A stretch of 64,000 nt of DNA from Alphaproteobacteria bacterium (GCA_049652985.1 JBASFK010000004.1:251879-315878), one strand, 5' to 3'. Shown: positions 6,762 through 28,569, numbered from the stretch's first letter. The notes: generated by a model from the sequence alone, not told the origin. Numbers and translations: made by a program.

Positions 6762-8123
6762 CTAGTCATCTTCATCATCTATTGTCTCAATGTGGGCCAG
6801 AATATCCTTGGCCTTGAGCCATTCACGGCTGTTTGCGGGCGCATTTTTCAGAACAGATTCCGCCTGGTTGCGAGCATAGGGTATCTCCCTCTGCAAAACC
6901 GCTTCCTCGGAGAGGTTGAGCCGCGCCATATTCTCGTTGCCCAGCTTGCCGTAAGCAGTGGCCAGCAACCTGAATATACGGCTCGAGCGCGGCTCGTCCT
7001 GCTGGGCCCGCTCGAGATTTTCAATGGCTTCCTGCTCATGGCCGGATTCAAGCAGGGCATGCCCGAGGGCAAGCCGGATCAGCCCGGCATCAGGTAGCTT
7101 GGTGGCGGCCGCGCGGTAATAGGGAATGGCCTCCTTGACCCGACCGAAATCCATCAGCATCTGGCCTTTGAGTTCCTGGAAATAAGGGTTGCCGGGTTCC
7201 GCGGCGATGAGCTTGTCCGCGCCTTTAAGGGCAAGATCCACCTCGCGGTTGCGGTAGGCGGCGATGGCCTTGGCATAAAGGGCAGGAACGGAAACGTCGC
7301 GGTCGCCGTAAATCCACGGAATTTTCGTCGGCGAGATGAATCCGGTCAGCTTCGCCAGCATTCTTTTGTGCTGCTCCGTCCATGCGGCGGGCAGCGGCGC
7401 ATCAATATATGGCGATTGTTCCGCGCGCTGGCGCACGGCGTCGATCCGGTCGCGCGTGAGCGGGTGGGTGCGCATATATTCGCTCTGCTGGTCCATCGGC
7501 AAAAGCTCTTCCGATTCAAGCTTCTCGAAGAATGTCTCGATGCCCCGGGGATTGAGATGCGCGGTTTCAAAAAAGCGCAGCGCTGCCTGGTCGGCGCTGG
7601 ATTCCTGCACACGGGTATGTGCGAGATAACCGCGCAGCGCCATGCTGCTGCTGCCCGCGGAAATGGTCGAGGCCGCGCCGCTTTCCCCCGTCGCCACAGC
7701 GATGCCGACGCCCAGCACCATGCCGAGAATGCTCTCGTACGATGCGCGCTCCATCGCCGTGCGCGCCGCGATCAGGTGTCCGCCGGAAATGTGGCCGAGC
7801 TCGTGCCCCATCACGCCGATGATCTCGCCCGCATTCTCGGTTCTCTCGATGAGGCCGGTATAAAGGAAGATGTTCGCGCCGCCAGCGACGAAGGCGTTGA
7901 TCTCGGGACTCTGGACGATGATGAGGTTGACGCTGTTTTTATCCATGCCTGCCGCCTGTAGCAGCGGCGCCAGCCATTCCTTGAGCGTATCCTCGATCTC
8001 GGTGTCGCGGATGATGATGGGAGGCGGGGCCGCCCGGGCGAAATCAGCCAGCCCCGTGCACAAGGCCAGCGAAAGAAAGAGACTATGCAAAAACAGTTTC
8101 AGGCGCGGTCTTTTATATGCCAT
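6762..8123 (-). CDS. M48-family zinc metalloprotease with C-terminal TPR repeats
   Basis: HELGHISGGH (HExxH) plus a TPR-like C-terminus. Start chosen at MAYKRPRLKL (ATG 8123). Confidence 0.85.
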   Translation of the reverse strand: MAYKRPRLKLFLHSLFLSLALCTGLADFARAAPPPIIIRDTEIEDTLKEWLAPLLQAAGMDKNSVNLIIVQSPEINAFVAGGANIFLYTGLIERTENAGEIIGVMGHELGHISGGHLIAARTAMERASYESILGMVLGVGIAVATGESGAASTISAGSSSMALRGYLAHTRVQESSADQAALRFFETAHLNPRGIETFFEKLESEELLPMDQQSEYMRTHPLTRDRIDAVRQRAEQSPYIDAPLPAAWTEQHKRMLAKLTGFISPTKIPWIYGDRDVSVPALYAKAIAAYRNREVDLALKGADKLIAAEPGNPYFQELKGQMLMDFGRVKEAIPYYRAAATKLPDAGLIRLALGHALLESGHEQEAIENLERAQQDEPRSSRIFRLLATAYGKLGNENMARLNLSEEAVLQREIPYARNQAESVLKNAPANSREWLKAKDILAHIETIDDEDD

Positions 8124-8197
8124 TATTTCCCTGTATTCATTGCTAGTTTTCCGGGATATTCCGGTCCACAGCATAGCCTCAAAGAATGAAATAGCAT

Positions 8198-8542
8198 ATG
8201 AAATTCGTTCTTCAATGGATCGACGTCGCCTGGCTGGTTCTCGCGCTTGTAGCAGCGCGCAAGGACCAGCGGCTCTGGGTTCTCGCTTTTTTCGCCGCCA
8301 GCATGGTGATGATGCGCATGCTGGTGGAACTGATGGGGTATATTGGCTATCCCGGCGGTATTACAGGCCTGATCGATATGCCGGTTCAGACGCGCGCGAT
8401 GCTGATCTACGGTTTGTTTTATATCGCCTACATTGCATTTTTTTATTATTCGCCGAGCGCGAAAGGAACATTACTTATGGCCGGGTCGATCGGATTTTTC
8501 TTCGCGGCGTTTTTCACAACAGCGGTTATCATGATCCCCTGA
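8198..8542 (+). CDS. Small polytopic membrane protein, unknown function
   Basis: 114-aa ORF with 3-4 hydrophobic segments. No family recognised. Confidence 0.5.
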   Translation: MKFVLQWIDVAWLVLALVAARKDQRLWVLAFFAASMVMMRMLVELMGYIGYPGGITGLIDMPVQTRAMLIYGLFYIAYIAFFYYSPSAKGTLLMAGSIGFFFAAFFTTAVIMIP

Positions 8543-8543
8543 C

Positions 8544-9197
8544 ATGTCCAGAAACAAAAAAAAATCGCGGGTCAAGACGGCAAAGAAGAGAAAAACCTCT
8601 TCGACGCGCTGGCTTGAGCGGCAACTGAATGACCCTTACGTCGACAAGGCGAAGACGGATGGCTACCGCAGCAGGGCCGCGTATAAAATTCTGGAGATCG
8701 ACGACAGAATCAAATTGCTGAAACGCGGAATGAAAGTGGTCGATCTCGGCTCGGCACCCGGCGGCTGGTCGCAGGTTGCCGCGCATAAGGGATGCACCGT
8801 CATCGCCATTGATCTGCTGGAGGTCGGTGAGATTCCCGGCGTCGATTTCCTGCAGATGGATTTCATGGATGACGCCGCGCCGGATAAATTAAAGGCGATG
8901 CTCGGCGGCCCTGCGGATGCTGTGCTCTCGGATATGGCACCCAACACGATGGGTCATAAATCGACGGATCATATCCGCATCATGGCGGTGGTCGAGGCGG
9001 CCTATTATTTCGCGAAAGAGGTTTTGAAACCGGGCGGCACGTTTGTCGCCAAAGTGTTCCAGGGCGGCGCGCAGAATACGATACTGGCCGAGATGAAAAA
9101 GGATTTCAAAACCGTGAAGCACATCAAGCCGCCCGCCAGCCGGAAAGAAAGCTCGGAACAATATCTCGTGGCTATCGGATTTAGAGGCGACAATTAG
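8544..9197 (+). CDS. rlmE: 23S rRNA (uridine-2'-O)-methyltransferase RlmE/FtsJ
   Basis: RSRAAYKILEIDDRIKLL...VVDLGSAPGGWSQV...DMAPNTMGH. Confidence 0.93.
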   Translation: MSRNKKKSRVKTAKKRKTSSTRWLERQLNDPYVDKAKTDGYRSRAAYKILEIDDRIKLLKRGMKVVDLGSAPGGWSQVAAHKGCTVIAIDLLEVGEIPGVDFLQMDFMDDAAPDKLKAMLGGPADAVLSDMAPNTMGHKSTDHIRIMAVVEAAYYFAKEVLKPGGTFVAKVFQGGAQNTILAEMKKDFKTVKHIKPPASRKESSEQYLVAIGFRGDN

Positions 9198-11914: not shown

Positions 11915-11933
11915 TCTGAGCAGTTCCAGATTA

Positions 11934-11971
11934 AAATCCCTGCCTGCGTGATGCGGCAGGGATTTTTCTTT
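11934..11971 (+). terminator. Rho-independent terminator
   Basis: Stem AAATCCCTGCC (11934-11944) pairs with GGCAGGGATTT (11955-11965), followed by TTTTCTTT. Confidence 0.6.
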
Positions 11972-16947: not shown

Positions 16948-18549
16948 ATGACAAACAAAGCCCCGCAGACAGCTCCCAAAACAACAGCCAACATCCAGCG
17001 CCACGACCGCATCCTGATCCTCGATTTCGGCTCGCAGGTCACACAGCTCATTGCCAGGCGCCTCCGCGAAAACGGGGTTTACTGCGAAATCTGGCCTTTC
17101 AACCAGGCGCCCGAGGAACGGGTAAAAGGCTTCGCGCCGAAAGGCATCATCCTCTCCGGCGGCCCGGCCAGCGTGACGAAATCCGATTCCCCCCGCGCGC
17201 CGGACTACGTATTCAATCTCGGCCTGCCGCTTTTGGGAATTTGCTACGGCCAGCAGACGATGGTCCAGCAGCTCGGCGGCAAGGTCGAAGGCTCCGACCA
17301 TCAGGAATTCGGTCGCGCCTACGTCAAGGTGCAAAAACCCTGCGCGATTTTCGAAGGCATCTGGAGCCCCGGCGCCAGCGAACAGGTCTGGATGAGCCAC
17401 GGCGACCGTGTCACGAAACTCCCCTCCGGGTTCGAGGTTGTCGGAATTTCAGAGGGCGCGCCCTTCGCCGCCGTCGCCGACGACAAGCGCCATTTCTACG
17501 GCGTGCAGTTCCACCCCGAGGTGATGCACACGCCGCACGGCACGCAGCTTCTCAAAAATTTCACGCATTTAGTGTGCGGCTGCAAGGGCGACTGGACCAT
17601 GGCGGCGTTCCGCGAAGAAGCCGTCGCGAAAATCCGCAAGCAGGTCGGCAAGGGCAAAGTGATCTGCGGCCTGTCGGGCGGCGTGGACTCGAGCGTTACC
17701 GCCGTGCTGCTGCACGAGGCGATCGGCGACCAGCTGACATGCATTTATGTCGATACCGGCCTGATGCGCGCGAATGAAAGCAAACAGGTCGTCGACATGT
17801 TCCGCGGCGCTTACAACATTCCCCTCGTCCATGAGGACGCGAGCGAGCGGTTCCTGAACGGCCTCGAGGGCATCTCCGAGCCGGAAATGAAACGCAAACT
17901 CATCGGCGCGATGTTCATCGACGTGTTCGAAAAACTCACCAAAGAAGCCGGGCAGGCGGAATTCCTCGCGCAGGGCACGCTGTACCCGGATGTGATCGAA
18001 AGCGTGTCGTTCACGGGTGGCCCGAGCGTCACGATCAAAAGCCACCACAATGTCGGCGGCCTGCCCGAGACGATGAAACTGAAACTGGTTGAGCCGCTCC
18101 GCGAACTGTTCAAGGACGAAGTGAGGGCGCTGGGCCGCGAGCTTGGCATGCCCGAGGAATTCATCAAGCGCCACCCGTTCCCCGGCCCCGGCCTCGCGAT
18201 CCGCATTCCCGGCGAAATCACGCGTGAGAAGCTCGAAATTTTGCGCAAGGCCGACACGGTCTATCTCGAGGAAATCCGCAACGCCGGTCTGTACGACGCG
18301 ATCTGGCAGGCCTTCGCCGTGCTGCTCCCGGTCAAAACCGTCGGCGTCATGGGCGATGACAGGACGTATGATTTCGTCTGCGCGCTCCGCGCCGTGACCA
18401 GCACCGACGGCATGACGGCGGATTCATACCCGTTCAGCCACGATTTCCTCTCCCGCGTCGCCACGCGCATCATCAACGAAGTGCGCGGCATCAACCGCGT
18501 CGTCTATGACGTGACGTCCAAGCCCCCGGGGACGATTGAGTGGGAATAG
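16948..18549 (+). CDS. guaA: GMP synthase (glutamine-hydrolysing)
   Basis: GATase domain (ILILDFGSQ...GICYG) plus ATP-PPase SGGVDSSV. Ends ...[11 protein letters not shown]. Start at ATG 16948. Confidence 0.97.
18530..18549 (+). repeat. att core copy 1 (the functional guaA terminus, ACG ATT GAG TGG GAA TAG)
   Basis: GGACGATTGAGTGGGAATA recurs at 28113-28131 (18/19 identical). GACGATTGAGTGGGA recurs at 28551-28565 (15/15 identical). Confidence 0.85.
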
Positions 18550-18611
18550 TTATTTTCCAAAAAATAACTAATAACTAGTTGATATTAAACAAAACTAGCA
18601 ATAATCTGTTC

Positions 18612-18632
18612 ACTACAAACTAACTGTAAACT
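18612..18632 (+). promoter_or_regulatory. Candidate arm-type integrase-binding motifs (ACTACAAAC, CTGTAAACT)
   Basis: The same two 9-mers occur adjacently in both distal arms: CTGYAAACTTACTACAAAC at 28054-28072 and 28491-28509. Confidence 0.4.
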
Positions 18633-18672
18633 CTGATATAATTCGGGCAGTTAGCTTTTGGGCCGAGTGAAC

Positions 18673-19983
18673 ATGCAGTCAAAAAAACGGATTATTGTGA
18701 ACAATCAAAGCCTCAGCATTCAAAAACCTGCCGTCAGCCGCAAGAAGCGTATGAAAAAAGACAACTCCCATCGAATTGTTGATGAGGTCGAAATATTGGA
18801 TGGCGAGGTTAAAGTAATCCGTACGACCAAAAGTGGACAATTTTGGTCCATGTCTTGTTGGCTACGTGAAGAAGGCAAGTGCTATCGGCGTTCATTAAGA
18901 ACAAGAAATCTTGACGAAGCTAAGCAGTTAGCCCGCGACCAATATATTCAAATTAAAGGCGATCTTAAATCAGGTAACAGGATTTTTACGAAGACAGCCG
19001 AAGAACTTGTTCAGGATTTTATCAACCATAAAACTGAAGAGGCAAAAGCAGGTCTTATTACTGAAGGACGTGTTCAAACCATCAGTATATCTTTAAATCG
19101 TTGGTTTTTAAAATATGTCGGTCATACAAAAAAACTCGACAAAATTACGCGACATGATTTTAAAGAATATTTTATATGGCGCAGGAAGCATGCTCCTGAT
19201 GTACGAAATTCAACGCTAACCAATGATCGTGCGCTTATCTCCTCGTTATTTAAATACGGCATTTCACATGGCTATTTAAAGTTTGAGCAGGCCCCGATCT
19301 TCCCTAAATTATCGATTAAAAAGGCTGATGTTGAACGTCGTGATGACCTTACTTTGGCAGAATGGCAACAGATGTTTCGGGCATTTCCAAGTTGGATCAA
19401 AAAATCAAAAGATGAAAAAGAGAAAGAACAGCGTCTCTTTATAAAAGATTTCTTGGTAATAGCCGCTAATACAGGCTTAAGGTTTGGCGAACTAAGAAAA
19501 TTAAAATGGAATATGATTAGAACGTATCAAGCAAAGCGCACAGGCCATCATATACACGTAGAAATTTCGGTTCCTCCCGATACAAAGACAGGGCCAAGAA
19601 CAGCAATCGGGCAAAGAGGAGATGTCTTTGACCGTATTAAAAAACTTTCAAAATTTACTAAGCCTAATGATTGGGTTTTCGTGGATAATGAAACTGGAGA
19701 TCAAATACATAAGAAGGTCTATTACAAGCAATGGCCGCTGCTTTTAAAAGAAAGCAAGCTATCGGATAGTAATAAAAATCTGACGTATTATTCCTTAAGA
19801 CACACCTACATCACATTCAGATTAATCGCTGAAACTAATATATTTTTCCTCGCTAAAAACGTAGGAACAAGTGTCCGGATGATCGAAAATCACTATGAAC
19901 ATGTGAAAACAGATGAGATGAGGCGCGAACTTACAAAATCTAAAAAACGTGATGAAGCTACAAAAATTTTGATAGGGGACTAA
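18673..19983 (+). CDS. int: Tyrosine-type site-specific integrase
   Basis: C-terminal catalytic motifs TGLRFGELRKLKW, YSLRHTYITF and MIENHYEHV. It sits next to the att site at guaA. ATG 18673 preferred over TTG 18658. Confidence 0.9.
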   Translation: MQSKKRIIVNNQSLSIQKPAVSRKKRMKKDNSHRIVDEVEILDGEVKVIRTTKSGQFWSMSCWLREEGKCYRRSLRTRNLDEAKQLARDQYIQIKGDLKSGNRIFTKTAEELVQDFINHKTEEAKAGLITEGRVQTISISLNRWFLKYVGHTKKLDKITRHDFKEYFIWRRKHAPDVRNSTLTNDRALISSLFKYGISHGYLKFEQAPIFPKLSIKKADVERRDDLTLAEWQQMFRAFPSWIKKSKDEKEKEQRLFIKDFLVIAANTGLRFGELRKLKWNMIRTYQAKRTGHHIHVEISVPPDTKTGPRTAIGQRGDVFDRIKKLSKFTKPNDWVFVDNETGDQIHKKVYYKQWPLLLKESKLSDSNKNLTYYSLRHTYITFRLIAETNIFFLAKNVGTSVRMIENHYEHVKTDEMRRELTKSKKRDEATKILIGD

Positions 19984-20008
19984 AATTTAGTTTTAGTTAT
20001 AGGATAAG

Positions 20009-21586
20009 ATGACGTTAGAAATAGTCCCACAAAATGCTCGCTTTACACCTATCAATTTATCTAATTTCATTGAGCATTTAAGAAGACATCAGCAAAAATC
20101 TATAATAAGTAGTGGTTCGTACTTATGTTGGGAAGCGTTTAGAAATCCAGAATTTAAATCTAAGTTGTCATCGCAGCTTCAGCTTATAGAATCTTATGCA
20201 CCCAAAATAATACTCCTAGCTTTAGCAACTGCAAATAATCAGAGAAATCTGACTGTAAATAATGAAGAATTCTATAATTTGTGTAGCAGTTTTCTTCATA
20301 TACGCACTCCTATTTCCGATAAACCTTTTTTGGATTTAGAAGCTAAAAAAATTACTGAAGAGTTAAATGCTGTATGCACAAAAAAGGGCAATATTCCTGT
20401 TGAAAGAATTCATGAAGAATTAATAAGAGCTAGCTGTTCGATAATGTTTATATCTCGAGGGGTCACTGCGCAGCATCGTAATTTTAAAATGAGTTTGGAG
20501 GAAATGTTTAGAGATTATCTCATTATTAAGCACATTGATTCTCAAACTTCTAATGAAGCATCTCGAATTTTAAAGAATATATTTGGTATCGATACACTAC
20601 AGATATTTCGCTCAGCTTTTGGTCTGTTTTCTGTAGCTAATGATACTAATCGAAATGGTTCTCTGAATTTCGGAACGTTAACTTGTGATGTTGCTTTAAC
20701 TGACCGTTTGAAAATAGATCTAACAACATGTCTTTCAGTGGCCACAAACACTTCCTATAAAGAAAGCGATTTGCGCGAGAACTGGCTTAATAAGGAAGTT
20801 CTTTCGGAACATGAGCTTTATCAGTCTTATGCTCCCGATCCCTTATCCTATAATCCTATCATTCACAGAGATAGATCAGTATTAGAGAATCAATTCTTAA
20901 TTCCATCGCCTGGCTTATTCTTTCGAGGCTTTCGGCAATCCCTATTCTCCATTCTTTATCAAAATGCTTCGAATAAAGGAGATATGGGAAGACAAATAGG
21001 CAATGCAATAGAAACTCACATTGAAGTAGCCTTAAAAAGCATTTTTTCGAAAGATCGAGTAACAAAAATTCAAAGCGATGAAAGACAAGCAGATTTTTTA
21101 ATTCAGCTCGAAAAAATCGATCTAATAATCGAGATCAAATCAATGATTGGAGGTATTTCAGATAAATTTGTTATGCGACCAGATCACACTGCTAAAATGT
21201 GGAATCGTCTTTATAGTGCATGTACACAATGTGCATCTTCATTAAAAACGGACGGCACAAAAAATAAACCAATCATTCCTATTATTTTAATCGCAGACCA
21301 TATCACAGCGGAACATTTACCCTTTGATCATTATGCATTCCATGCGGGCCTATATAAAGACTCAGGCATCAATGCGATTGAATATATTTCATGGAATTCT
21401 TTAGAGGATATTCTTTCGAAAACATCTATTGCCGAATTTGAAAAGGCATTATTGAAAAAATGGAAGGATCCAGCAAGAGTTACAGTCGGTACTTCAATGG
21501 CTTTAGACTTAAACAGAGATACACCTGCACATGAATATCAATATCTAAAAGATGCAGAAGTAGAAATTTTTATGAGAGAAATATAA
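20009..21586 (+). CDS. Unknown N-terminal domain fused to a C-terminal PD-(D/E)xK-type nuclease motif set (putative)
   Basis: 525 aa. Ordered motifs GNAIETHIEVAL (E335), QADFLI (D362) and LIIEIKS (E375-x-K377). The first ~330 aa have no recognised motif. Confidence 0.5.
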   Translation: MTLEIVPQNARFTPINLSNFIEHLRRHQQKSIISSGSYLCWEAFRNPEFKSKLSSQLQLIESYAPKIILLALATANNQRNLTVNNEEFYNLCSSFLHIRTPISDKPFLDLEAKKITEELNAVCTKKGNIPVERIHEELIRASCSIMFISRGVTAQHRNFKMSLEEMFRDYLIIKHIDSQTSNEASRILKNIFGIDTLQIFRSAFGLFSVANDTNRNGSLNFGTLTCDVALTDRLKIDLTTCLSVATNTSYKESDLRENWLNKEVLSEHELYQSYAPDPLSYNPIIHRDRSVLENQFLIPSPGLFFRGFRQSLFSILYQNASNKGDMGRQIGNAIETHIEVALKSIFSKDRVTKIQSDERQADFLIQLEKIDLIIEIKSMIGGISDKFVMRPDHTAKMWNRLYSACTQCASSLKTDGTKNKPIIPIILIADHITAEHLPFDHYAFHAGLYKDSGINAIEYISWNSLEDILSKTSIAEFEKALLKKWKDPARVTVGTSMALDLNRDTPAHEYQYLKDAEVEIFMREI

Positions 21587-22293
21587 TGTTTAATAAAGCA
21601 GATATTGATGCAGCAGAATTAGATTGGAAAGACGCAGACGAATTTAACGAATCGTTATCAAAGTTAAAAAAAGGCCAAGTTAAGTTCATAAAGGTTGAAG
21701 GTGATCTTGCTCGATCAAAACTCGCTTGGAAAATAGCAACTTATTCTGAGGCTATACGCTATCGATTAATAGAGGTAACGGAGGCATGTATTGATGAATG
21801 GCAAAAAGAACGTTTTGTCGCATGTTTTATCATGGCGAGAGTAATAATAGAAACTGTTGCGGCATTATATGAATTGGAACATCAATTACAAAAACTATTA
21901 GCTAATAAAGATCTGGATGCGATCGACGCAATGATAATGAAGAGAACATTCGGCACAAGACTAGCTGACTTGTTCGGCGGTAAAAAAGCTTATGAAGCTG
22001 TAAGTGTTCTCACTACTATTGATAAATTAGATAAATTTCTTAAAGGGCATGTAAGAGAAGCTTATGATCGTCTCTCTGAATATACGCACACAAATTATAT
22101 GGGTGTTTGTAGTTCGTACGAAAAAATTGATTACAAATACGGAGACGTGACGTATGGTAATCAGAATACTAAGCACAATGTGTTCATGCGACTGCAGGGT
22201 GAGTTTGGTCTTCTAGAGCTGGCTAATATCACATTTGAGAAAATTAAGTCGCATGTTAAGGCAACTGCTGATCTTCAGCATGAACTAGATTAG
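21586..22293 (+). CDS. Hypothetical helical protein with an Rx5H (HEPN-like) motif, translationally coupled to the upstream gene
   Basis: The ATG overlaps the upstream stop (ATAATG). AYDRLSEYTH contains R162-x5-H168. The HEPN assignment is tentative. Confidence 0.35.
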   Translation: MFNKADIDAAELDWKDADEFNESLSKLKKGQVKFIKVEGDLARSKLAWKIATYSEAIRYRLIEVTEACIDEWQKERFVACFIMARVIIETVAALYELEHQLQKLLANKDLDAIDAMIMKRTFGTRLADLFGGKKAYEAVSVLTTIDKLDKFLKGHVREAYDRLSEYTHTNYMGVCSSYEKIDYKYGDVTYGNQNTKHNVFMRLQGEFGLLELANITFEKIKSHVKATADLQHELD

Positions 22294-22493
22294 ATAATCA
22301 AATCTTTCAATTCACAATCTAAAGCATCTGCAATCGAAACTAACGACTTGATTGTGACATTCATTTTTCCATTTTCAATTTCCGAGAGATAGCTTCGATC
22401 AATCTGCGCTAACCCACATAAGTCTTCTTGCGTAAGATTCTGCTTCTTTCGCAGTTTTACGATATTTTTCCCTATGATCTTTAGCTCTTTCAT
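22290..22493 (-). CDS. XRE-family (Cro/CI-type) helix-turn-helix regulator
   Basis: 67 aa. LRKKQNLTQEDLCGLAQIDRSYLSEIENGKMNVTIKSLVSIADAL is a canonical HTH_XRE sequence. Confidence 0.85.
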   Translation of the reverse strand: MKELKIIGKNIVKLRKKQNLTQEDLCGLAQIDRSYLSEIENGKMNVTIKSLVSIADALDCELKDLII

Positions 22494-22500
22494 AGAGAAA

Positions 22501-22549
22501 TTATGTTGTTTTTAACCCACAAAGACCGTAGGTTATAACCAACATAATG
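22501..22549. promoter_or_regulatory. Candidate operator in the divergent XRE / 22561 promoter region
   Basis: Inverted repeat ATTATGTTG (22501-22509) / CAACATAAT (22541-22549) encloses a perfect 10-bp palindrome GGTTATAACC (22532-22541). Confidence 0.35.
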
Positions 22550-22560
22550 AAGGAGTTAGC

Positions 22561-23340
22561 ATGTTCAAAAGAGTAGGGATAGCAACAATAGCTGTGACAT
22601 TGTGCCTTTTGTCTAATCCAATTAAAGCCCAGGATTATCAAAGTGCTTTGGAATTAGTGGAAGGGGATGAATACGCTAGCTATTTCATAGCGCCAACATT
22701 TAAAGACAAAATAAAACAAGCTCTCCAAATATCTGATCAAAGCATATCACCAGAAGCTCTAAGTGTTTTGCAAAGTCTCGATGTTCGTGGCCTTAAGTTG
22801 ATGGCGACATACGAAGAAGCTCTAAGCTTCGCTAAATCCGAAAACAGCGTCTGCCAATCCATTCTAAGCAATTTTCACAGCCTATGGCATGTCATGAACA
22901 TGGATAGGAATGTAAGTGGGAAAACGACACAAGCGGATTCAAAAACAAAAGTGTCACAAAGTGCAATGTATTGTAATGGAAAAGTGACATATTTGTCATT
23001 TACACCATTAGGCCGTTTAAATGATGTGACAATGACATTGGTTTCAGAAGAAAATAATGACGAAATTCTAAAAACATTTGAACAGAAGTTATCTGGTAAA
23101 AAAATAGATACGAAATGCACAAGACGAAATCTTGGTAAATGTGAAGCCGGAATATATTTTTATAAAGACCAATTCTCTAAATTCAATTTACTATTCGAGG
23201 ATAAAGCTACTTTTAAAGATGGGAAATATTTCTATGTTTATGAGATGGAGCTTTCATCTGATTACCTTAAAAAAACAGATAACGATGCTTTAAAACAAAT
23301 CTTGGAATCTAATCAATCTAAACAAAAGACGAAGCTTTAA
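22561..23340 (+). CDS. Secreted hypothetical protein
   Basis: Signal peptide MFKRVGIATIAVTLCLLSNPIKAQD. No family recognised. Confidence 0.6.
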   Translation: MFKRVGIATIAVTLCLLSNPIKAQDYQSALELVEGDEYASYFIAPTFKDKIKQALQISDQSISPEALSVLQSLDVRGLKLMATYEEALSFAKSENSVCQSILSNFHSLWHVMNMDRNVSGKTTQADSKTKVSQSAMYCNGKVTYLSFTPLGRLNDVTMTLVSEENNDEILKTFEQKLSGKKIDTKCTRRNLGKCEAGIYFYKDQFSKFNLLFEDKATFKDGKYFYVYEMELSSDYLKKTDNDALKQILESNQSKQKTKL

Positions 23341-23355
23341 AACGGCCATAAAAAA

Positions 23356-23388
23356 AGCTGCAATAATTAACATTGCAGCTTTTCTCTT
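23356..23388 (+). terminator. Rho-independent terminator
   Basis: Stem AGCTGCAAT (23356-23364) / ATTGCAGCT (23372-23380), 7-nt loop, then TTTCTCTT. Confidence 0.65.
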
Positions 23389-23550
23389 AATTCATATTTC
23401 AGATCACTTATTTTTCATTTTCTGTTTTTGTAACTTTCAATTAAAAATTATTTTTTCAAATTTACATTTCCTATCTCTTATTCTATGTTCCTATTCATCT
23501 TTCTCTTTTCATTAAGCAATAATAAAATATTGCAGAACTCATAACGAATT

Positions 23551-23571
23551 CGGCACATCTTAATTTTTACG
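23551..23571 (+). repeat. Direct repeat copy A (CGGCAC-ATC-TTAATTTTTACG), embedded in a hairpin
   Basis: Matches 24938-24955 (CGGCAC-TTAATTTTTACG). Here the 12-mer forms the loop of the hairpin CACATC (23554-23559) / GATGTG (23571-23576). Confidence 0.55.
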
Positions 23572-23623
23572 ATGTGAGGAACGGTGCTCGGTTACTTGAA
23601 GTTTTCAGCGTAAATTGGCAGCG

Positions 23624-24100
23624 TTACTTGGAACAAAATTCACGGCTAATGATAAAAGCTCGATAATTTTGATCTTTATATTGTTCCTTTAAACAGTAAT
23701 CCAAACGTCCAGTAAAAGGTTGAATATCGATTGAACCACTTTTAACCAGCGTCTCCCATACATCAGGCGCATGCTGTTCGAAGCGTTCGATATGTTCTCG
23801 ATTAACCCTTGTTAATAGATGATAGTGAAGGTTCGACTGGATATGCTCAGGGAACGCGATGAAAAACGTTCGTTCTTCAGGTGGTTTTTTATACCAATTC
23901 GTCCCTAAAATTCTTCGGTCGATATTTGCATGAAATTTTTTAAGTTTGTCGCGGGCAGAATCCAATGTTTCGGGTCTATTAAAAACGAGCGTCATGAAAT
24001 GGGTAAAGTTTTGGCTGTCTAGCCAAACTTTGAATTTGGGGAGTAATTTTGATGGAAATATAGTGGTGGTGGTCATCAACCTATTTATGCATTGAGCCAC
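23624..24100 (-). CDS. Small rolling-circle Rep-like (HUH) protein, possibly YagK/YfjJ / inovirus gpII-like (tentative)
   Basis: 158 aa with three ordered motifs resembling RCR Rep motifs: FMTLVF (motif 1), LHYHLLT (HUH) and LDYCLKE (uxxYuxK). Confidence 0.45.
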   Translation of the reverse strand: MAQCINRLMTTTTIFPSKLLPKFKVWLDSQNFTHFMTLVFNRPETLDSARDKLKKFHANIDRRILGTNWYKKPPEERTFFIAFPEHIQSNLHYHLLTRVNREHIERFEQHAPDVWETLVKSGSIDIQPFTGRLDYCLKEQYKDQNYRAFIISREFCSK

Positions 24101-24133
24101 TTATCGCGTTAAGTTATTGATTGTCCAATAAAA

Positions 24134-24164
24134 AATGGCTTCTATTGTAATAATAGAAGCCATT
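24134..24164 (-). terminator. Hairpin terminator between 24177..24776 and the Rep-like gene
   Basis: 13-bp stem AATGGCTTCTATT (24134-24146) / AATAGAAGCCATT (24152-24164). A T-run follows on the minus strand. Confidence 0.5.
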
Positions 24165-24176
24165 TTATGTTTGTTG

Positions 24177-24776
24177 CTAAACGCTCCGAATCCATGGAAA
24201 CGAGTCGTATTCTTCATATTCTTCAAGTGTCCGTGGATTTTGACGAATAAATTGATTTAGAGACCGCTGCATCTTCTCGTTACGCTGTTCGTCAAAAATT
24301 GCCTCTAAAAGTGGATCGTAGATAGTAAGACGCGCAGGACAATTTTGGACTACATCATTCACTGTAAATTCAGTATTTTTCAATTCACTGATGTCTGTGG
24401 CAATTTTAGCATCGCGTTCCATCAGCTCATGAAGATGAAAGGCAATATACAGCTTCATACTTTTATAAAGCTTTTTGTTGGATTTTTTACACCCATTATT
24501 TGCCAACTGAACAAGTTTAATGGAAGATTTTTTATCATAATCTGAGAATTCTTGACGAGTTACATAGCGACCTGTAGTTACAATTAGCTGGTGCAGGGAC
24601 TGGGTGTAATCTGCTACTTGTTTATCAGAGAGTTTACGGATGGACTTCAGCGCATAATAAATTTCGCTGCCAAAGAAAGTTCTTACCATGCCATCGTCTA
24701 GAGTCTCGGGATTCCACACGTAGTGAATGGAATATTTGCGATTGAAGTAAATAGGTAGATTGGCCTTCATTTTCAT
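24177..24776 (-). CDS. Hypothetical protein
   Basis: 199-aa AT-rich ORF upstream of the Rep-like gene. No family recognised. Confidence 0.55.
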   Translation of the reverse strand: MKMKANLPIYFNRKYSIHYVWNPETLDDGMVRTFFGSEIYYALKSIRKLSDKQVADYTQSLHQLIVTTGRYVTRQEFSDYDKKSSIKLVQLANNGCKKSNKKLYKSMKLYIAFHLHELMERDAKIATDISELKNTEFTVNDVVQNCPARLTIYDPLLEAIFDEQRNEKMQRSLNQFIRQNPRTLEEYEEYDSFPWIRSV

Positions 24777-24937
24777 TTTTTCCTTATTTTAATTAATTTT
24801 TGCAATCGCCTTATGCGTTTGCTTCATGTCCAAATCCAAACTTCCATAACCACATGCAAAATGGTTCTCTGGTATAAAGAGAATTGGTTTGAAGTGGGAA
24901 ATGTGGTGTTGGGGGGACATGAACCTATTTATTCACG

Positions 24938-24955
24938 CGGCACTTAATTTTTACG
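24938..24955 (+). repeat. Direct repeat copy B (CGGCAC-TTAATTTTTACG)
   Basis: Same orientation as 23551-23571. Together the two copies bracket the two minus-strand genes 23624-24776. Confidence 0.55.
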
Positions 24956-24986
24956 TTTTTTTACGTAATAATATGTCGTTCTTTAG

Positions 24987-25018
24987 ACTGATTATGATAC
25001 TTTGTTATCATAATCAGT
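24987..25018. repeat. Perfect 13-6-13 palindromic site (ACTGATTATGATA-CTTTGT-TATCATAATCAGT)
   Basis: 13-bp perfect inverted arms at 24987-24999 and 25006-25018 with a 6-bp spacer. It lies 114 bp upstream of the small tyrosine recombinase gene. Confidence 0.7.
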
Positions 25019-25131
25019 GGTATATAACCCATTGATTTATAATATAATTTTAGCTCATGTGTTGCGTTGACCTTATCCCAATACATTAGGAAATTGCCTG
25101 TACTTAACGTTTTCTAATGAAAGGACAGACA

Positions 25132-25719
25132 ATGGGACTAGGTAAGCAGGCCAAGATCTTATCGAGGCATCAGCAAGCGGCTTTAATTTCGTTTTTAACG
25201 ACCACTAGACACGCCAAACGAAACCAAGTGATTTTCCTGTTATCGATTAGAGCCGGTCTTAGAGCGAAAGAAATCGCGTTTATCACCTGGTCTATGGTTT
25301 CAGATGCCGAAGGCAATATATCCGATGTTATTAATCTTCGAAATTCCGCGTCTAAAGGTAATTCTGGCGGCATAATCTGGATGAACAGCGATTTAAGGCA
25401 GGCTCTAATTGAATACCGGGCTACTCAAAACTTAATGAGTGGTAATGACAGGATCATTAAAACAGAACGCGGTGAAAACACATCAGCCCAAGTTATCGTG
25501 AATATGTTCAAGGGTTGGTACAAGAAACTGGGTTTCGAGGGGTGTTCATCACACAGCGGCCGTCGAACCTTCATTACAAACGCAGCTCGTAAAATATCGA
25601 CGGTCGGTGGTTCGATTCGAGATGTTCAAGTCCTAGCCAGACATTCATCCCTTCAAATGACCCAGAGATATATTGAATGTGATGTCGAAGCACAGAAAAA
25701 AGTGGTTCAGCTAATATAG
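25132..25719 (+). CDS. Small tyrosine recombinase (catalytic domain only)
   Basis: RAGLRAKEI, SSHSGRRTFIT, LARHSS and TQRYIE supply the R..HxxR..H..Y residues. ATG 25132 has an AAGGA RBS; an alternative ATG is at 25117. Confidence 0.85.
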   Translation: MGLGKQAKILSRHQQAALISFLTTTRHAKRNQVIFLLSIRAGLRAKEIAFITWSMVSDAEGNISDVINLRNSASKGNSGGIIWMNSDLRQALIEYRATQNLMSGNDRIIKTERGENTSAQVIVNMFKGWYKKLGFEGCSSHSGRRTFITNAARKISTVGGSIRDVQVLARHSSLQMTQRYIECDVEAQKKVVQLI

Positions 25720-25762
25720 CAAAAAATTCATTATTATTCTGAATTTATGCTATAAATTCGAA

Positions 25763-26404
25763 ATGTCAGAACAACCGAAACTTCTACCATTAATTCAAAA
25801 GAAAATAGATGAAGAAAGACAAGTTCTACTTCAACTCATAACTTCTTGGATCATGCACTTTGCTAGTGGCAAGGGCACTATAAAAACTTTCAGCGGGAAA
25901 ACCTGTTCTTGGTCAGGCACATTGTTCGAGGGGAGTTCACGAGACGTATTTTGGGGCAGATATATTGAACCATTTTTAGAAGATTGTACCGAACGTCTAA
26001 TTGATTTGGTGGTGCAAGAATCTGACAGCAATAAACTCAATCTGAAATTGGAATTATATACCTTATCAAACCATATGCGTGGTTTGTTTGCCCGAATATA
26101 CAATGAAATGGCTGAGGCTGATCAACGGATGTTGGGTATGGGACATCCTAATCAAATAGACAGAAAAGACGTTACTCAGGAAATCATAAGCATGAACCAC
26201 TATTTGGATCAGCACATTGTCATGGCTCTTAATAAACATAAGTCACGCACTTCTTTGAAAACAAAATTTATTGAAAATTTTAAAGAGCAGGCTGTTCAAA
26301 AGCTCGTAGAATATTCGATCGTAGCAATTATTTCTATTTTAGGATGGATATTTGCAAGCGAACATATCGCGGCAATCATCAACTCTCTAAGAAATAACGG
26401 GTGA
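25763..26404 (+). CDS. Hypothetical protein with a C-terminal TM helix
   Basis: 213 aa. Helical N-terminal part and one hydrophobic segment (YSIVAIISILGWIFA). No family recognised. Confidence 0.55.
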   Translation: MSEQPKLLPLIQKKIDEERQVLLQLITSWIMHFASGKGTIKTFSGKTCSWSGTLFEGSSRDVFWGRYIEPFLEDCTERLIDLVVQESDSNKLNLKLELYTLSNHMRGLFARIYNEMAEADQRMLGMGHPNQIDRKDVTQEIISMNHYLDQHIVMALNKHKSRTSLKTKFIENFKEQAVQKLVEYSIVAIISILGWIFASEHIAAIINSLRNNG

Positions 26405-26413
26405 CAGAAGAAA

Positions 26414-27229
26414 ATGAATTCAAAAGTTGATTTTAAAGCTCGCGCAAAGCAGCATCTTGCTGCTGCAAAAGAAGAATTATCGTCAGGAGATGAAAGACGT
26501 TTAAAATATGCGGCTCTTGAAATTCGTATGGCAATGGAAGCCGTAACTTACGAACGTGCTCAGGCATATATCAAGGATATCCCGCCAGAAGTTTATGAAA
26601 CTTGGCAACCTAAAAAACTGATGTTGTTTCTACTTGAGGCCGATCCTTATGCAGACCAATCTTCAACACTTTCAGTAGGAATAGAAAAAGAATATGGAGT
26701 CGAAGCCAAGGAAATGAAAACCCTTGGCACTGAGCATATTTTGTCGTTGGCAGAAATAAAAAAGAATTATGATGCGATTGGTAGCTATCTTCATATGCCA
26801 ACGTATAAACAACTTCAGGAGGCTAAACAAAACCTTTCAAGTCTCAAAGATAGATGTGAAAAAATAATTGAAAAACTAGAGAAAGTTATCAATTCCAAAA
26901 TTCATAACATAAAATTTACAGTTTTTTCCGAAGTACATTGTGTTCGATGTGAGCATCTGATTAAAAAGAATATAGCTCATCTAAAAAAGCTTGATACAAT
27001 CGAAGCCAAATGTTTGGGATGTGGTGCAACTTATTTGGTTGAGAACGCAGACAACGATCAAATTAAATGGAAACCAAAAAAATCTTTATTTAATTGCATT
27101 AACAAAGAATGTAACGAAGAAAATTCAATTTGGAACGATGAGTTAAAGCCTGGCACAATTATTCAATGTAAAGCGTGCAATGCTAATAACGAAATTGCAT
27201 TGTCTGTTGTTTTAAGAAGCACAGTATAA
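26414..27229 (+). CDS. Hypothetical protein: helical N-domain plus two C-terminal zinc-ribbon-like Cys pairs
   Basis: 271 aa. C176xxC179...C200xxC203 and C228x4C233...C252xxC255. N-domain motifs LEIRMAMEAVTYE and NYDAIGSYLH resemble those in ORF 21586..22293. Confidence 0.55.
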   Translation: MNSKVDFKARAKQHLAAAKEELSSGDERRLKYAALEIRMAMEAVTYERAQAYIKDIPPEVYETWQPKKLMLFLLEADPYADQSSTLSVGIEKEYGVEAKEMKTLGTEHILSLAEIKKNYDAIGSYLHMPTYKQLQEAKQNLSSLKDRCEKIIEKLEKVINSKIHNIKFTVFSEVHCVRCEHLIKKNIAHLKKLDTIEAKCLGCGATYLVENADNDQIKWKPKKSLFNCINKECNEENSIWNDELKPGTIIQCKACNANNEIALSVVLRSTV

Positions 27230-27257
27230 AGCCATAAAAATTAGATACCGCGAATAT

Positions 27258-27995
27258 CTAATGCAACATCTTGTATTGAAGATAAGCTCGAAAATCAGGC
27301 ATAGGCTTGTTATTAGCAAAAAATATCAGTCCGATATCAAACGAAAAAATATTTTTATATCTGTTATTGGCTATGTCTGAGTATTCGATTGTCAGTTTTA
27401 AGCTGGGAATAGGGCAGTCCAAATTCTTTGAAAGCACTGCAAAATTTATATAAAAATAATTTGAAACAAGCCAAGTATAAGCTGCAGGTACAGGTATCTT
27501 AAGGCCAGTTTGTTCGATGGAAGCTGGAAGCAGATAATCTTCGCTCCGCTCTAAGCTTGGGTTCAAATTAACTAATGCTTCGGATTTATCGCCATCTTTA
27601 AATTCTAAAAAACTGTCTAATTTTTTTATTGTGACCCTTGTCTCATTTTCTTGATTCAACTGGTTCAATTTTTGAATGAATGTGTCGAAATCAAAATCCC
27701 AAGTTAACTGTATATCTTTGGCAGCTCCATTTCCCAGATTAAATAACGATATTTCTAAATCAGGCGATTTTAGCTCTTCCAGTTCTTCGTTTTTTGAGTC
27801 GTTTAATACCCAATCACAAAAAATAGCGGACTGAAAGTAACCACTGAAAACTTGTTTGATGGGTACAATGTCAGGCTTATAGCTATGCTTCCTTTGCCTG
27901 TGCATTTCGAGCAGTGTTAACAAAGCAGCAATTGCTGCAAAAAAAGTCGCCCAATCAGCAACAAATGACGATAAATTTTCGAATGAAATAGGCAT
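27258..27995 (-). CDS. Hypothetical membrane-anchored protein
   Basis: 245 aa with an N-terminal TM helix (WATFFAAIAALLTLL). Convergent with 26414..27229. No family recognised. Confidence 0.55.
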   Translation of the reverse strand: MPISFENLSSFVADWATFFAAIAALLTLLEMHRQRKHSYKPDIVPIKQVFSGYFQSAIFCDWVLNDSKNEELEELKSPDLEISLFNLGNGAAKDIQLTWDFDFDTFIQKLNQLNQENETRVTIKKLDSFLEFKDGDKSEALVNLNPSLERSEDYLLPASIEQTGLKIPVPAAYTWLVSNYFYINFAVLSKNLDCPIPSLKLTIEYSDIANNRYKNIFSFDIGLIFFANNKPMPDFRAYLQYKMLH

Positions 27996-28053
27996 TTAAA
28001 GATGATACTTTTTATAGGGTAAGCTATCCATTCAAATTTTCTGGCAGGATAAG

Positions 28054-28132
28054 CTGCAAACTTACTACAAACAAAAATATTATGATTATAAATCAAATAA
28101 TTAGACGCATAAGGACTATTGAGTGGGAATAA
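28054..28132 (+). repeat. Island right arm plus att core copy 2 (ACT ATT GAG TGG GAA TAA)
   Basis: The 75-bp arm 28054-28128 is collinear with 28491-28565 (58/75 identical by hand), including a perfect 21-mer AAACTTACTACAAACAAAAAT. It ends in a copy of the guaA terminus. Confidence 0.8.
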
Positions 28133-28565
28133 ACGATGGAAATCAAAATTATTAATATAAAAACAGATGAAATAAAAGATTGGGATAGCTTCCATGCTGT
28201 ATTTCAAAAGGCATTTGGATTTCCTGATTTTTACGGACGTAATATGAATGCATGGATTGATTGTATGTCTTATCTTGATGAATCGGATAATGAGATGACC
28301 AACATAACAGTTAAATCAGGCGGCATAATTATATTGAATATAGAAAACTCTGCGGAATTCAAAAAACGCTGCGCAGAGCAATATGAAGCATTGATAGAAT
28401 GCTCTGCATTTGTAAATTATAGACGCATTGAAGCCGGGGAGACCCCCGTTCTTTCTCTAATTTTTTCTGGACATTATTAAAGCAATCCAACTGTAAACTT
28501 ACTACAAACAAAAATTTTTTGAAGTTAGATCAAATGTTTATAAGTGCAGAGACGATTGAGTGGGA
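28132..28565 (+). mobile_element. Mini-element or remnant between att copies 2 and 3, carrying only a barstar-like gene
   Basis: Bounded by copies of the guaA terminus. It shares its right arm with the large island. No recombinase of its own. Confidence 0.6.
28136..28480 (+). CDS. Barstar-family ribonuclease inhibitor (orphan immunity protein)
   Basis: FHAVFQKAFGFPDFYGRNMNAWIDCMSYL aligns with barstar [28 protein letters not shown]. Size (114 aa) is appropriate. Confidence 0.8.
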   Translation: MEIKIINIKTDEIKDWDSFHAVFQKAFGFPDFYGRNMNAWIDCMSYLDESDNEMTNITVKSGGIIILNIENSAEFKKRCAEQYEALIECSAFVNYRRIEAGETPVLSLIFSGHY

Positions 28566-28569
28566 GTGA
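28491..28569 (+). repeat. Second right arm plus att core copy 3 (ACG ATT GAG TGG GAG TGA)
   Basis: See 28054-28132. GACGATTGAGTGGGA is identical to 18531-18545, and the T-I-E-W-E-stop reading is retained. Confidence 0.8.

Follow-up and report, generated by a model that had tools for sequence, protein, structure and literature searches.

By the common view, a tyrosine recombinase cannot clamp its DNA without a core-binding domain. In Cre/loxP, XerCD/dif and ResD/rfsF, all with a role in dimer resolution, such a domain clamps a core site with 11–13-bp arms and a 6–8-bp spacer; Xer further needs FtsK or accessory proteins, and neither loxP nor dif is accompanied by a second dyad or an operator. 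TnpI of Tn4430, a protein of about 284 aa, is likewise two-domain. The IRS of Tn4430 lies just upstream of tnpI; its 116 bp hold a 14-4-14 core, which is cut with a 6-bp stagger, and a pair of accessory motifs (PMC2847244). Other proteins consist of the catalytic domain only. FimB and FimE, phase-variation invertases of E. coli with about 200 aa, belong to the fim switch, in which two 9-bp inverted repeats 314 bp apart bracket a promoter. MobK, TcpM and MpsA, relaxases of the MOB_M kind, have no core-binding domain, keep the catalytic residues and have an oriT just upstream (PMC8152469; PMC9299015); the three are mutually dissimilar (PMC8152469). Below we compare these systems with a palindrome and an adjacent recombinase gene of an alphaproteobacterium.

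The window, that is the whole stretch of DNA that was analyzed, comprises 64,000 nucleotides (GCA_049652985.1 JBASFK010000004.1:251879-315878). At 24987–25018 it contains the core dyad ACTGATTATGATA-CTTTGT-TATCATAATCAGT, and reading of the sequence returned the two perfect 13-bp arms around a 6-bp spacer exactly as they were first described in the earlier note. Block shuffles of matched composition predict 0.03 perfect inverted repeats per window when the arms must reach 13 bp and the spacer must not exceed 12 bp. A half-site matrix derived from 98 arms in related loci was then run over the window. The dyad, with a pair score of 29.5, was the sole full site in 64 kb; the next best pair scored 2.0, and half-site pairs in shuffles did not exceed 6.8. 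The single copy that had been counted by eye was thereby borne out. Apart from the core, the half-sites detected in the window were orphans, among them a right-arm-like sequence without a partner arm, TATCATAATCTGA at 24533–24545 (11/13 matches), located inside ORF199 and 450 bp from the dyad. By consensus match only, a promoter-like TAGACT-16-TATCAT with a TG extension is present inside the core dyad (24984–25011, plus strand).

The recombinase gene lies downstream of the palindrome on the plus strand. Its open reading frame spans 25117–25719 and encodes 200 aa. As homologues begin with MGLGKQ and a Shine-Dalgarno sequence, AAGGA, occurs at 25121–25125 on the plus strand, we assigned the start to the ATG at 25132, 6 nt after the Shine-Dalgarno sequence; relatives have GGAG or AGGA at the equivalent place. 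The gene thus extends from 25132 to 25719 and encodes 195 aa, and its ATG is 113 nt from the palindrome, in line with the approximate values of 195 aa and 114 bp proposed before. Pfam recognizes PF00589 only, at residues 15–188 of the 200-aa frame (E = 2e-16). The catalytic residues R44, K75, H141, R144, H171 and Y180 were all found, in this order. No N-terminal core-binding domain was detected with Pfam, and the XerA model aligns from its position 93 on; together with family lengths of 190–205 aa this upholds the view of the protein as a catalytic domain only. An AlphaFold2 model (pLDDT 75) gave the catalytic domains of XerA, Tn1549 Int and Cre as top Foldseek matches with a probability of 1.0, and the predicted fold is closest to XerA and Cre. 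The suggestion that profiles would reveal the recombinase clade held in part: NCBIfam and Pfam place the protein with Xer-type recombinases only, and the curated Xer models do so weakly and far below their cut-offs. The Xer equivalog models of NCBIfam, for example, reach 32–56 bits against cut-offs of 220–335.

Sequence comparison assigns the recombinase to a coherent family of catalytic-domain-only tyrosine recombinases. At least 7,956 of the 8,000 scored candidates from a 90%-identity protein collection match it, and the best 120 homologues in this collection are 68–92% identical and nearly all 195 aa long. Among 50%-identity clusters, 157 match at E ≤1e-30 and 1,619 at E ≤1e-10, with lengths of 190–205 aa in almost all of the best matches. 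The R-K-H-R-H-Y hexad is kept in 90–91 of 91 intact family genes, down to 37% identity. Homologues about 33–40% identical occur in phages, including phiCbK-type Caulobacter phages, which we take to be lytic. We found no published description of such a family in the literature searched, in which MOB_M and Fim are the precedents. The family itself is apparently undescribed, whereas each of its parts has a precedent: Fim and MOB_M for the catalytic domain without a partner domain, and TnpI for a regulated four-motif site.

To place the palindrome in its family context, we compared 27 genome, 80 metagenome, 64 viral and several plasmid regions, and based the dyad statistics on those 65 loci whose upstream sequence was long enough. 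A conserved unit of about 735 bp, made up of the 32-bp dyad, an IHF-like motif, a 42-bp dyad and the gene, emerged from more than 100 related loci. The order of dyad, IHF-like motif, TGTAC and second dyad is identical in every locus read. In the 65 loci the 32-bp dyad is found at −134 to −150 from the ATG and its half-sites have the consensus A-C-T-[GC]-A-T-[TG]-A-T-A-N-A-A. Dyad position 14 is mostly T and position 19 mostly A, which makes 14-4-14 the geometry across the family. Between lineages, the arms of the core dyad shift in concert, from ACTCATGA... to ACCCAGTAG... and ACTTGTTAG..., and to TAGTATAT... in Piscirickettsia. Mismatches between the two arms amount to 23 G:T, 28 A:C and 105 of other types; as they are not of the wobble type, the dyad is probably bound by protein and not folded as an RNA or single-stranded DNA hairpin. 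Two of the loci (L010 and L021) carry an extra perfect palindrome of the GTATTTCCTA/TAGGAAATAC type at −196 to −177, 30 nt upstream of the dyad. A half-site at the 3′ end of the gene was also considered, where ACTGGT-like codons occur, and was dropped since it does not co-vary with the arms.

Two further elements separate the core dyad from the gene. The first, 6 nt past the dyad at 25025–25037, reads TAACCCATTGATT on the plus strand and AATCAATGGGTTA on the minus strand, and in the latter orientation fits WATCAANNNNTTR. The IHF consensus, read on the other strand, is YAANNNNTTGA, and this sequence occurs 5–6 nt after the dyad in 21 of the 65 loci and in a relaxed form in 40, compared with 0.45 expected. 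The motif may thus be a binding site for IHF. The second element is a 42-bp dyad, ATACATTAGGAAA ... TTTTCTAATGAAA, at 25081–25122. It is built from the same type of half-site, exceeds the core in width by one helical turn and reaches as far as the Shine-Dalgarno sequence. In most loci its half-sites are located at −54 (plus strand) and −22 (minus strand), and they recur with a 22-nt gap between them. These half-sites differ from the arms of their own locus by 4.0 mismatches, from foreign arms by 5.9, and shuffled leaders give 6.6, so that the half-sites of the two dyads co-vary within a locus. In the window the 42-bp dyad is degenerate; its matrix score of 12.6 is the second best of all 42-bp pairs in 64 kb. 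We infer that it serves as an accessory site, an operator or both.

In most relatives the best sigma-70-like promoter match is −50 to −40 from the ATG, inside the second dyad; its −10 lies within the proximal-left half-site and its −35 on the conserved TGTAC. The distal dyad is then about 90 bp upstream of the likely promoter. The window differs from most relatives in that its best promoter match is inside the distal dyad.

The initial comparison with a bare loxP-like site needs correction. The core architecture is as claimed, but the second dyad at 25081–25122 and the IHF-like motif had been overlooked, and they bring the site nearer to a regulated site of the TnpI/IRS type. As in Tn4430, the putative cis site is immediately upstream of the recombinase gene and has a 32-bp 14-4-14 core followed, before the gene, by two more motifs, which makes four motifs with a common sequence in total. 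The motifs span about 116 bp in the IRS (PMC2847244) and about 146 bp here. The accessory motifs are direct repeats in Tn4430, whereas here they form the 42-bp inverted pair. No Tn3-family transposase is nearby, and an IHF-like motif is present here. Moreover, TnpI has two domains and the 195-aa protein has no core-binding domain. We consider it likely that the palindrome at 24987–25018 is the binding and cleavage site of the adjacent 195-aa recombinase, because the gene encodes the only candidate binder that co-varies with the half-sites, and because the enzyme is catalytically intact by its residues and the dyad has the geometry of a competent core for this enzyme class.

Next, we determined how far the conserved unit extends. 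In about 16 of 29 locus pairs at 85–92% identity, homology runs from the outer edge of the left arm to the stop codon. Alignment of related loci revealed no conservation beyond the stop codon, and no target duplications were found around the unit. The neighboring genes are not conserved among loci. The exceptions are the two islands closest to the window island: both L001 and L002 have the Rep-like ORF and ORF199, and L001 has the integrase as well. Across the loci no conserved partner gene was found. The neighbors include integrases, large serine recombinases, defence-like ATPases and porins, among others. Integrases make up 6 of the 146 neighbor ORFs within 3.5 kb, and an integrase is present in the same island here and in several relatives. 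No conjugation genes (T4SS, coupling protein) were among the families most often matched by the 146 neighbor ORFs. Mobility in the manner of an insertion sequence was rejected: the unit has neither target duplications nor terminal inverted repeats, the identical protein P0049 is always in the same context, and paralogues on the same plasmid are only about 85% identical.

Several loci bear traces that are suggestive of recombination at the dyad. The Piscirickettsia plasmid L030 carries two paralogous units, A and B, whose right arms are the same but whose left arms and spacers differ. Strain NVI 5692 (L187, L188) combines a right arm, leader and gene of type B (92–100%) with a left arm and spacer that are type A-like, with 16–17/19 matches compared with 12/19 to B. 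Such chimeric dyads locate a breakpoint within the 32 bp. Among 27 close pairs, identity is 56% for the central 6 bp, compared with 72% for third codon positions and 82% for the arms. Finally, in L044 a second full site is located 927 bp off in inverted orientation, with the gene between the two sites, and the segment of 930 bp is possibly invertible. The two L044 sites (533–564 and 1459–1490) have identical spacers (cagccg / cggctg) and partly homologous outward flanks. The search of relatives for further site copies, as proposed in the earlier note, was thus positive for L044 and not for about 70 other loci, in which no second site was present within 3–6 kb. Neither a directly repeated site pair nor a deletion product was found among the loci. 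A crossover inside the dyad was also considered for L006, L021 and L010; it was not clean because the leader is a mosaic. In L006 and L021 the downstream flank is 97–98% identical and the unit itself 76–88%.

The unit resides in a low-GC island (18530–28131, 35% GC) at the 3′ end of guaA, delimited by att-like direct repeats at 18530–18548 and 28113–28131; a third copy of the repeat is at 28550–28568. As had been noticed, the recombinase is the second one in an island with its own integrase, a 441-aa tyrosine integrase (PF00589) at 18658–19983 on the plus strand, which is 83% identical to that of the related island L001. On the minus strand, a Rep-like ORF (23624–24100) matches PF23343 (REP_ORF2-G2P) weakly (E = 1e-3), and the unannotated 199-aa ORF199 (24177–24776) adjoins it. 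Since L001 and L002 keep the two ORFs in synteny with the recombinase, these form a backbone of the island family, which may replicate after excision. An ORF and Pfam/NCBIfam profile search of the island returned no transposase, and the same profiles returned no other recognizable relaxase. PADLOC gave no meaningful match to defence systems, and an Rfam scan of 23000–27000 with E up to 1 gave no match.

On plasmids the gene has a different company. In Piscirickettsia it is located between HicAB or PIN-AbrB toxin-antitoxin genes and parB/parA, with up to five copies per plasmid. On a conjugative Legionella plasmid, which has its own MOBF relaxase, it is beside parB, parAB and rep. The plasmid homologues with this par/rep context are 30–55% identical to the recombinase.

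Our tentative best explanation, which falls a little short of probable, is that the unit is a recombination module complete in itself, which resolves multimers or cointegrates and regulates its own expression. That site and enzyme form such a self-contained module, as originally suggested, is strongly supported by the conserved position, the co-varying half-sites, the sharp limits and the invariant catalytic residues. In such a module, 24987–25719 would act as one autonomous unit. Two protomers, each holding the DNA by nothing but its catalytic domain, would occupy the 32-bp dyad and make cuts 6 bp apart. Strand exchange would take place with another copy of the site, located on a sister molecule or a dimerised one, and would resolve multimers or cointegrates of the excised island or of a plasmid. 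Protomers on the 42-bp dyad could not exchange strands, given the wide distance between its arms; jointly with a host bending protein, they would serve as accessory subunits and repress transcription from the promoter of the gene, in parallel to TnpI/IRS of Tn4430. Of the two roles proposed earlier, multimer resolution or a Cre/lox-like switch, resolution would be the better fit by layout and plasmid context. It is suggested by the TnpI/IRS-like layout, the plasmid maintenance context and the phage homologues, and favored by the Rep-like gene next to the unit in the window island, by the MOBF relaxase that the Legionella plasmid already has and by the lack of conjugation genes among the families most often matched by the 146 neighbor ORFs. 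The chimeric Piscirickettsia dyads and the faster divergence of the central 6 bp count in its favor as well. Several points count against it. A single site per replicon would suit an oriT just as well, the accessory motifs form an inverted pair and not direct repeats as in Tn4430, and the plasmid homologues that provide the par/rep context are distant. In addition, neither a direct-repeat site pair nor a deletion product came to light, an integrative island of 9.6 kb would have an obvious need for resolution only if it replicates after excision, and relaxases account for all three known proteins on mobile elements that are recombinase-like, have the catalytic domain only and have a cis site upstream.

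The last point leads to an unlikely but still substantial possibility that the earlier note had not considered, namely that the unit is a mobilisation module with a MOB_M-kind relaxase and an upstream oriT. A dimer would nick one strand of the dyad, a helper element would transfer the excised island, and the second dyad would serve autoregulation. IHF sites are common in oriTs, which we counted for this reading. The protein resembles MobK, TcpM and MpsA in having the catalytic domain only, a tyrosine near the C-terminus, an inverted-repeat cis site upstream and a promoter that probably overlaps it; the catalytic residue is Y179 in MobK, which is dimeric (PMC8152469), and Y180 here. MOB_M relaxases are reported to be abundant, often annotated as integrases and in 96% of cases near an integrase (bioRxiv 10.64898/2026.01.13.699239), on small plasmids or islands. 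Likewise, the small island studied here has its own integrase and no other recognizable relaxase, several relatives adjoin integrases or large serine recombinases, and modular oriT-plus-relaxase cassettes would fit the sharp limits of the unit. However, a comparison of the family profile with TcpM (pCW3) gave an hhalign probability of 0.5% and no specific similarity, MobK and MpsA being likened by description, and NCBIfam/Pfam place the family only with Xer-type recombinases. MobK (pIGRK) differs by two extra C-terminal helices and a G-rich oriT element, and MpsA (SGI1) by its need for MpsB and a small RNA, while here there is no conserved partner gene. No plasmid from Klebsiella, the host of MobK, was among the matches listed at E = 1. 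MOB-suite typing in PLSDB knows the MOBM class (pCW3), yet labels the Piscirickettsia carriers non-mobilizable. The context speaks against mobilisation as well: the plasmid homologues are in par/rep/toxin-antitoxin maintenance regions, on the Legionella plasmid next to a MOBF relaxase, others are in phages presumed to be lytic or in up to five copies on Piscirickettsia plasmids, and T4SS or coupling-protein genes were not among the families most matched by the 146 neighbors. Lastly, a fully symmetric core with a 6-bp stagger suits strand exchange and not single-strand nicking. There is also an outside chance that the unit represents a widespread and previously unrecognised class of minimal nomadic DNA-processing cassettes. 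These would be either a relaxase clade with a symmetric, recombination-competent oriT, used both in nicking for transfer and in recombination, or self-relocating units, with limits at the outer edge of the dyad and the stop codon and without target duplications.

The remaining readings fare worse. That the dyads are operators only, through which the protein represses its own promoter and perhaps the divergent one while its recombination target is elsewhere in the host or element, has a slim chance of being correct. It would account for the −10-like hexamers in the half-sites, the best promoter matches inside the dyads, the 42-bp dyad that cannot be a crossover site and the one full site in 64 kb. 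Still, two inverted motifs with a 6-bp stagger by themselves make a competent core for enzymes of this class, the gene is accompanied by no other conserved site in more than 100 loci, and in most relatives the distal dyad lies about 90 bp upstream of the likely promoter; in Piscirickettsia the breakpoint falls in the dyad. A FimB/FimE-like inversion switch, in which a segment between two inverted sites turns flanking genes or itself on and off, is very improbable. FimB and FimE use IHF, which we counted in its favor. With about 200 aa and no domain besides the catalytic one, they can be aligned over their whole length with the family (residues 10–184 here to 7–175), and the inverted sites of L044, with identical 6-bp spacers and the gene inside, have the corresponding arrangement. 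However, the similarity is only about 22% (hhalign probability 11%), and NCBIfam NF007370 scores 14 bits against a cut-off of 221. The window has a single core site, and L044 is the exception among about 70 loci; the element order is constant in every locus read, with no inverted variants, and the spacers of the two dyads differ. The Cre/lox-like switch suggested at the outset likewise finds no support in the window, with its one site and no inversion variants. Nor does the locus match Xer/dif, since the site is in an island and not at the chromosomal terminus and the protein is not a two-domain Xer. Barely credible, finally, is a nucleic-acid hairpin that would work as a terminator, as an RNA element or as the single-strand origin used by the Rep-like gene. 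The perfect 13-bp stem and the Rep-like ORF 900 bp away are compatible with it, but the palindrome lies between two divergent genes and so terminates neither, it has no T-run, terminator call or Rfam match, and its arm mismatches show no excess of G:T. Furthermore, the half-site recurs twice more with a 22-nt gap, and the dyad travels with the recombinase and not with Rep.

The resolution module that we favor and the relaxase reading have different consequences. A decision between them would reclass small alphaproteobacterial islands, and likewise plasmids of Piscirickettsia, Legionella and Acinetobacter, as mobilisable or as merely stabilised. In either case, the family is large, with about 8,000 clusters at 90% identity, and its enzymes make do with a catalytic domain and a lineage-specific four-motif site. 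It thus offers a small and tractable system for studying how a synapse or a relaxosome is assembled without a core-binding domain. Its lineage-specific half-sites and spacers could also yield compact orthogonal recombination tools.

Some minor observations concern the surroundings of the units. In L006, a 317-bp 3′ fragment of a second recombinase gene (8012–8554) follows a 2.5-kb porin-gene segment; this segment (5592–8106 in L006/L021) is 97–98% identical between the two genomes, in contrast to about 80% for their recombinase units. On L030, tandem repeats of about 27 nt (GCAGTAAAAACAGCTACTCACACCGTGA) begin after 6480, right after the stop codon of Piscirickettsia copy B. Several independent short metagenome contigs that encode P0049 (L117–L122) end 50–96 nt upstream of the gene; these ends between dyad and ATG could reflect structural heterogeneity or just low coverage. 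At the guaA end, the third att-like repeat is accompanied by a 75-nt repeat (28054–28128 and 28491–28565; 77% identity), which suggests tandem accretion of the 9.6-kb island and then of a 437-bp islet. The islet contains a Barstar (barnase inhibitor) gene at 28136–28480 alone, with no barnase-like gene nearby, and low GC runs on to about 29200. Between the Rep-like ORF and ORF199, a perfect 15-5-15 palindrome (24132–24166) is followed on the minus strand by a T-run, and for this reason is probably the terminator of ORF199; alternatively, it might be a replication origin hairpin. Further perfect palindromes are present at 23353–23383 (12-7-12) and 11933–11966 (12-10-12), so that the window contains four such palindromes compared with 0.23 expected.
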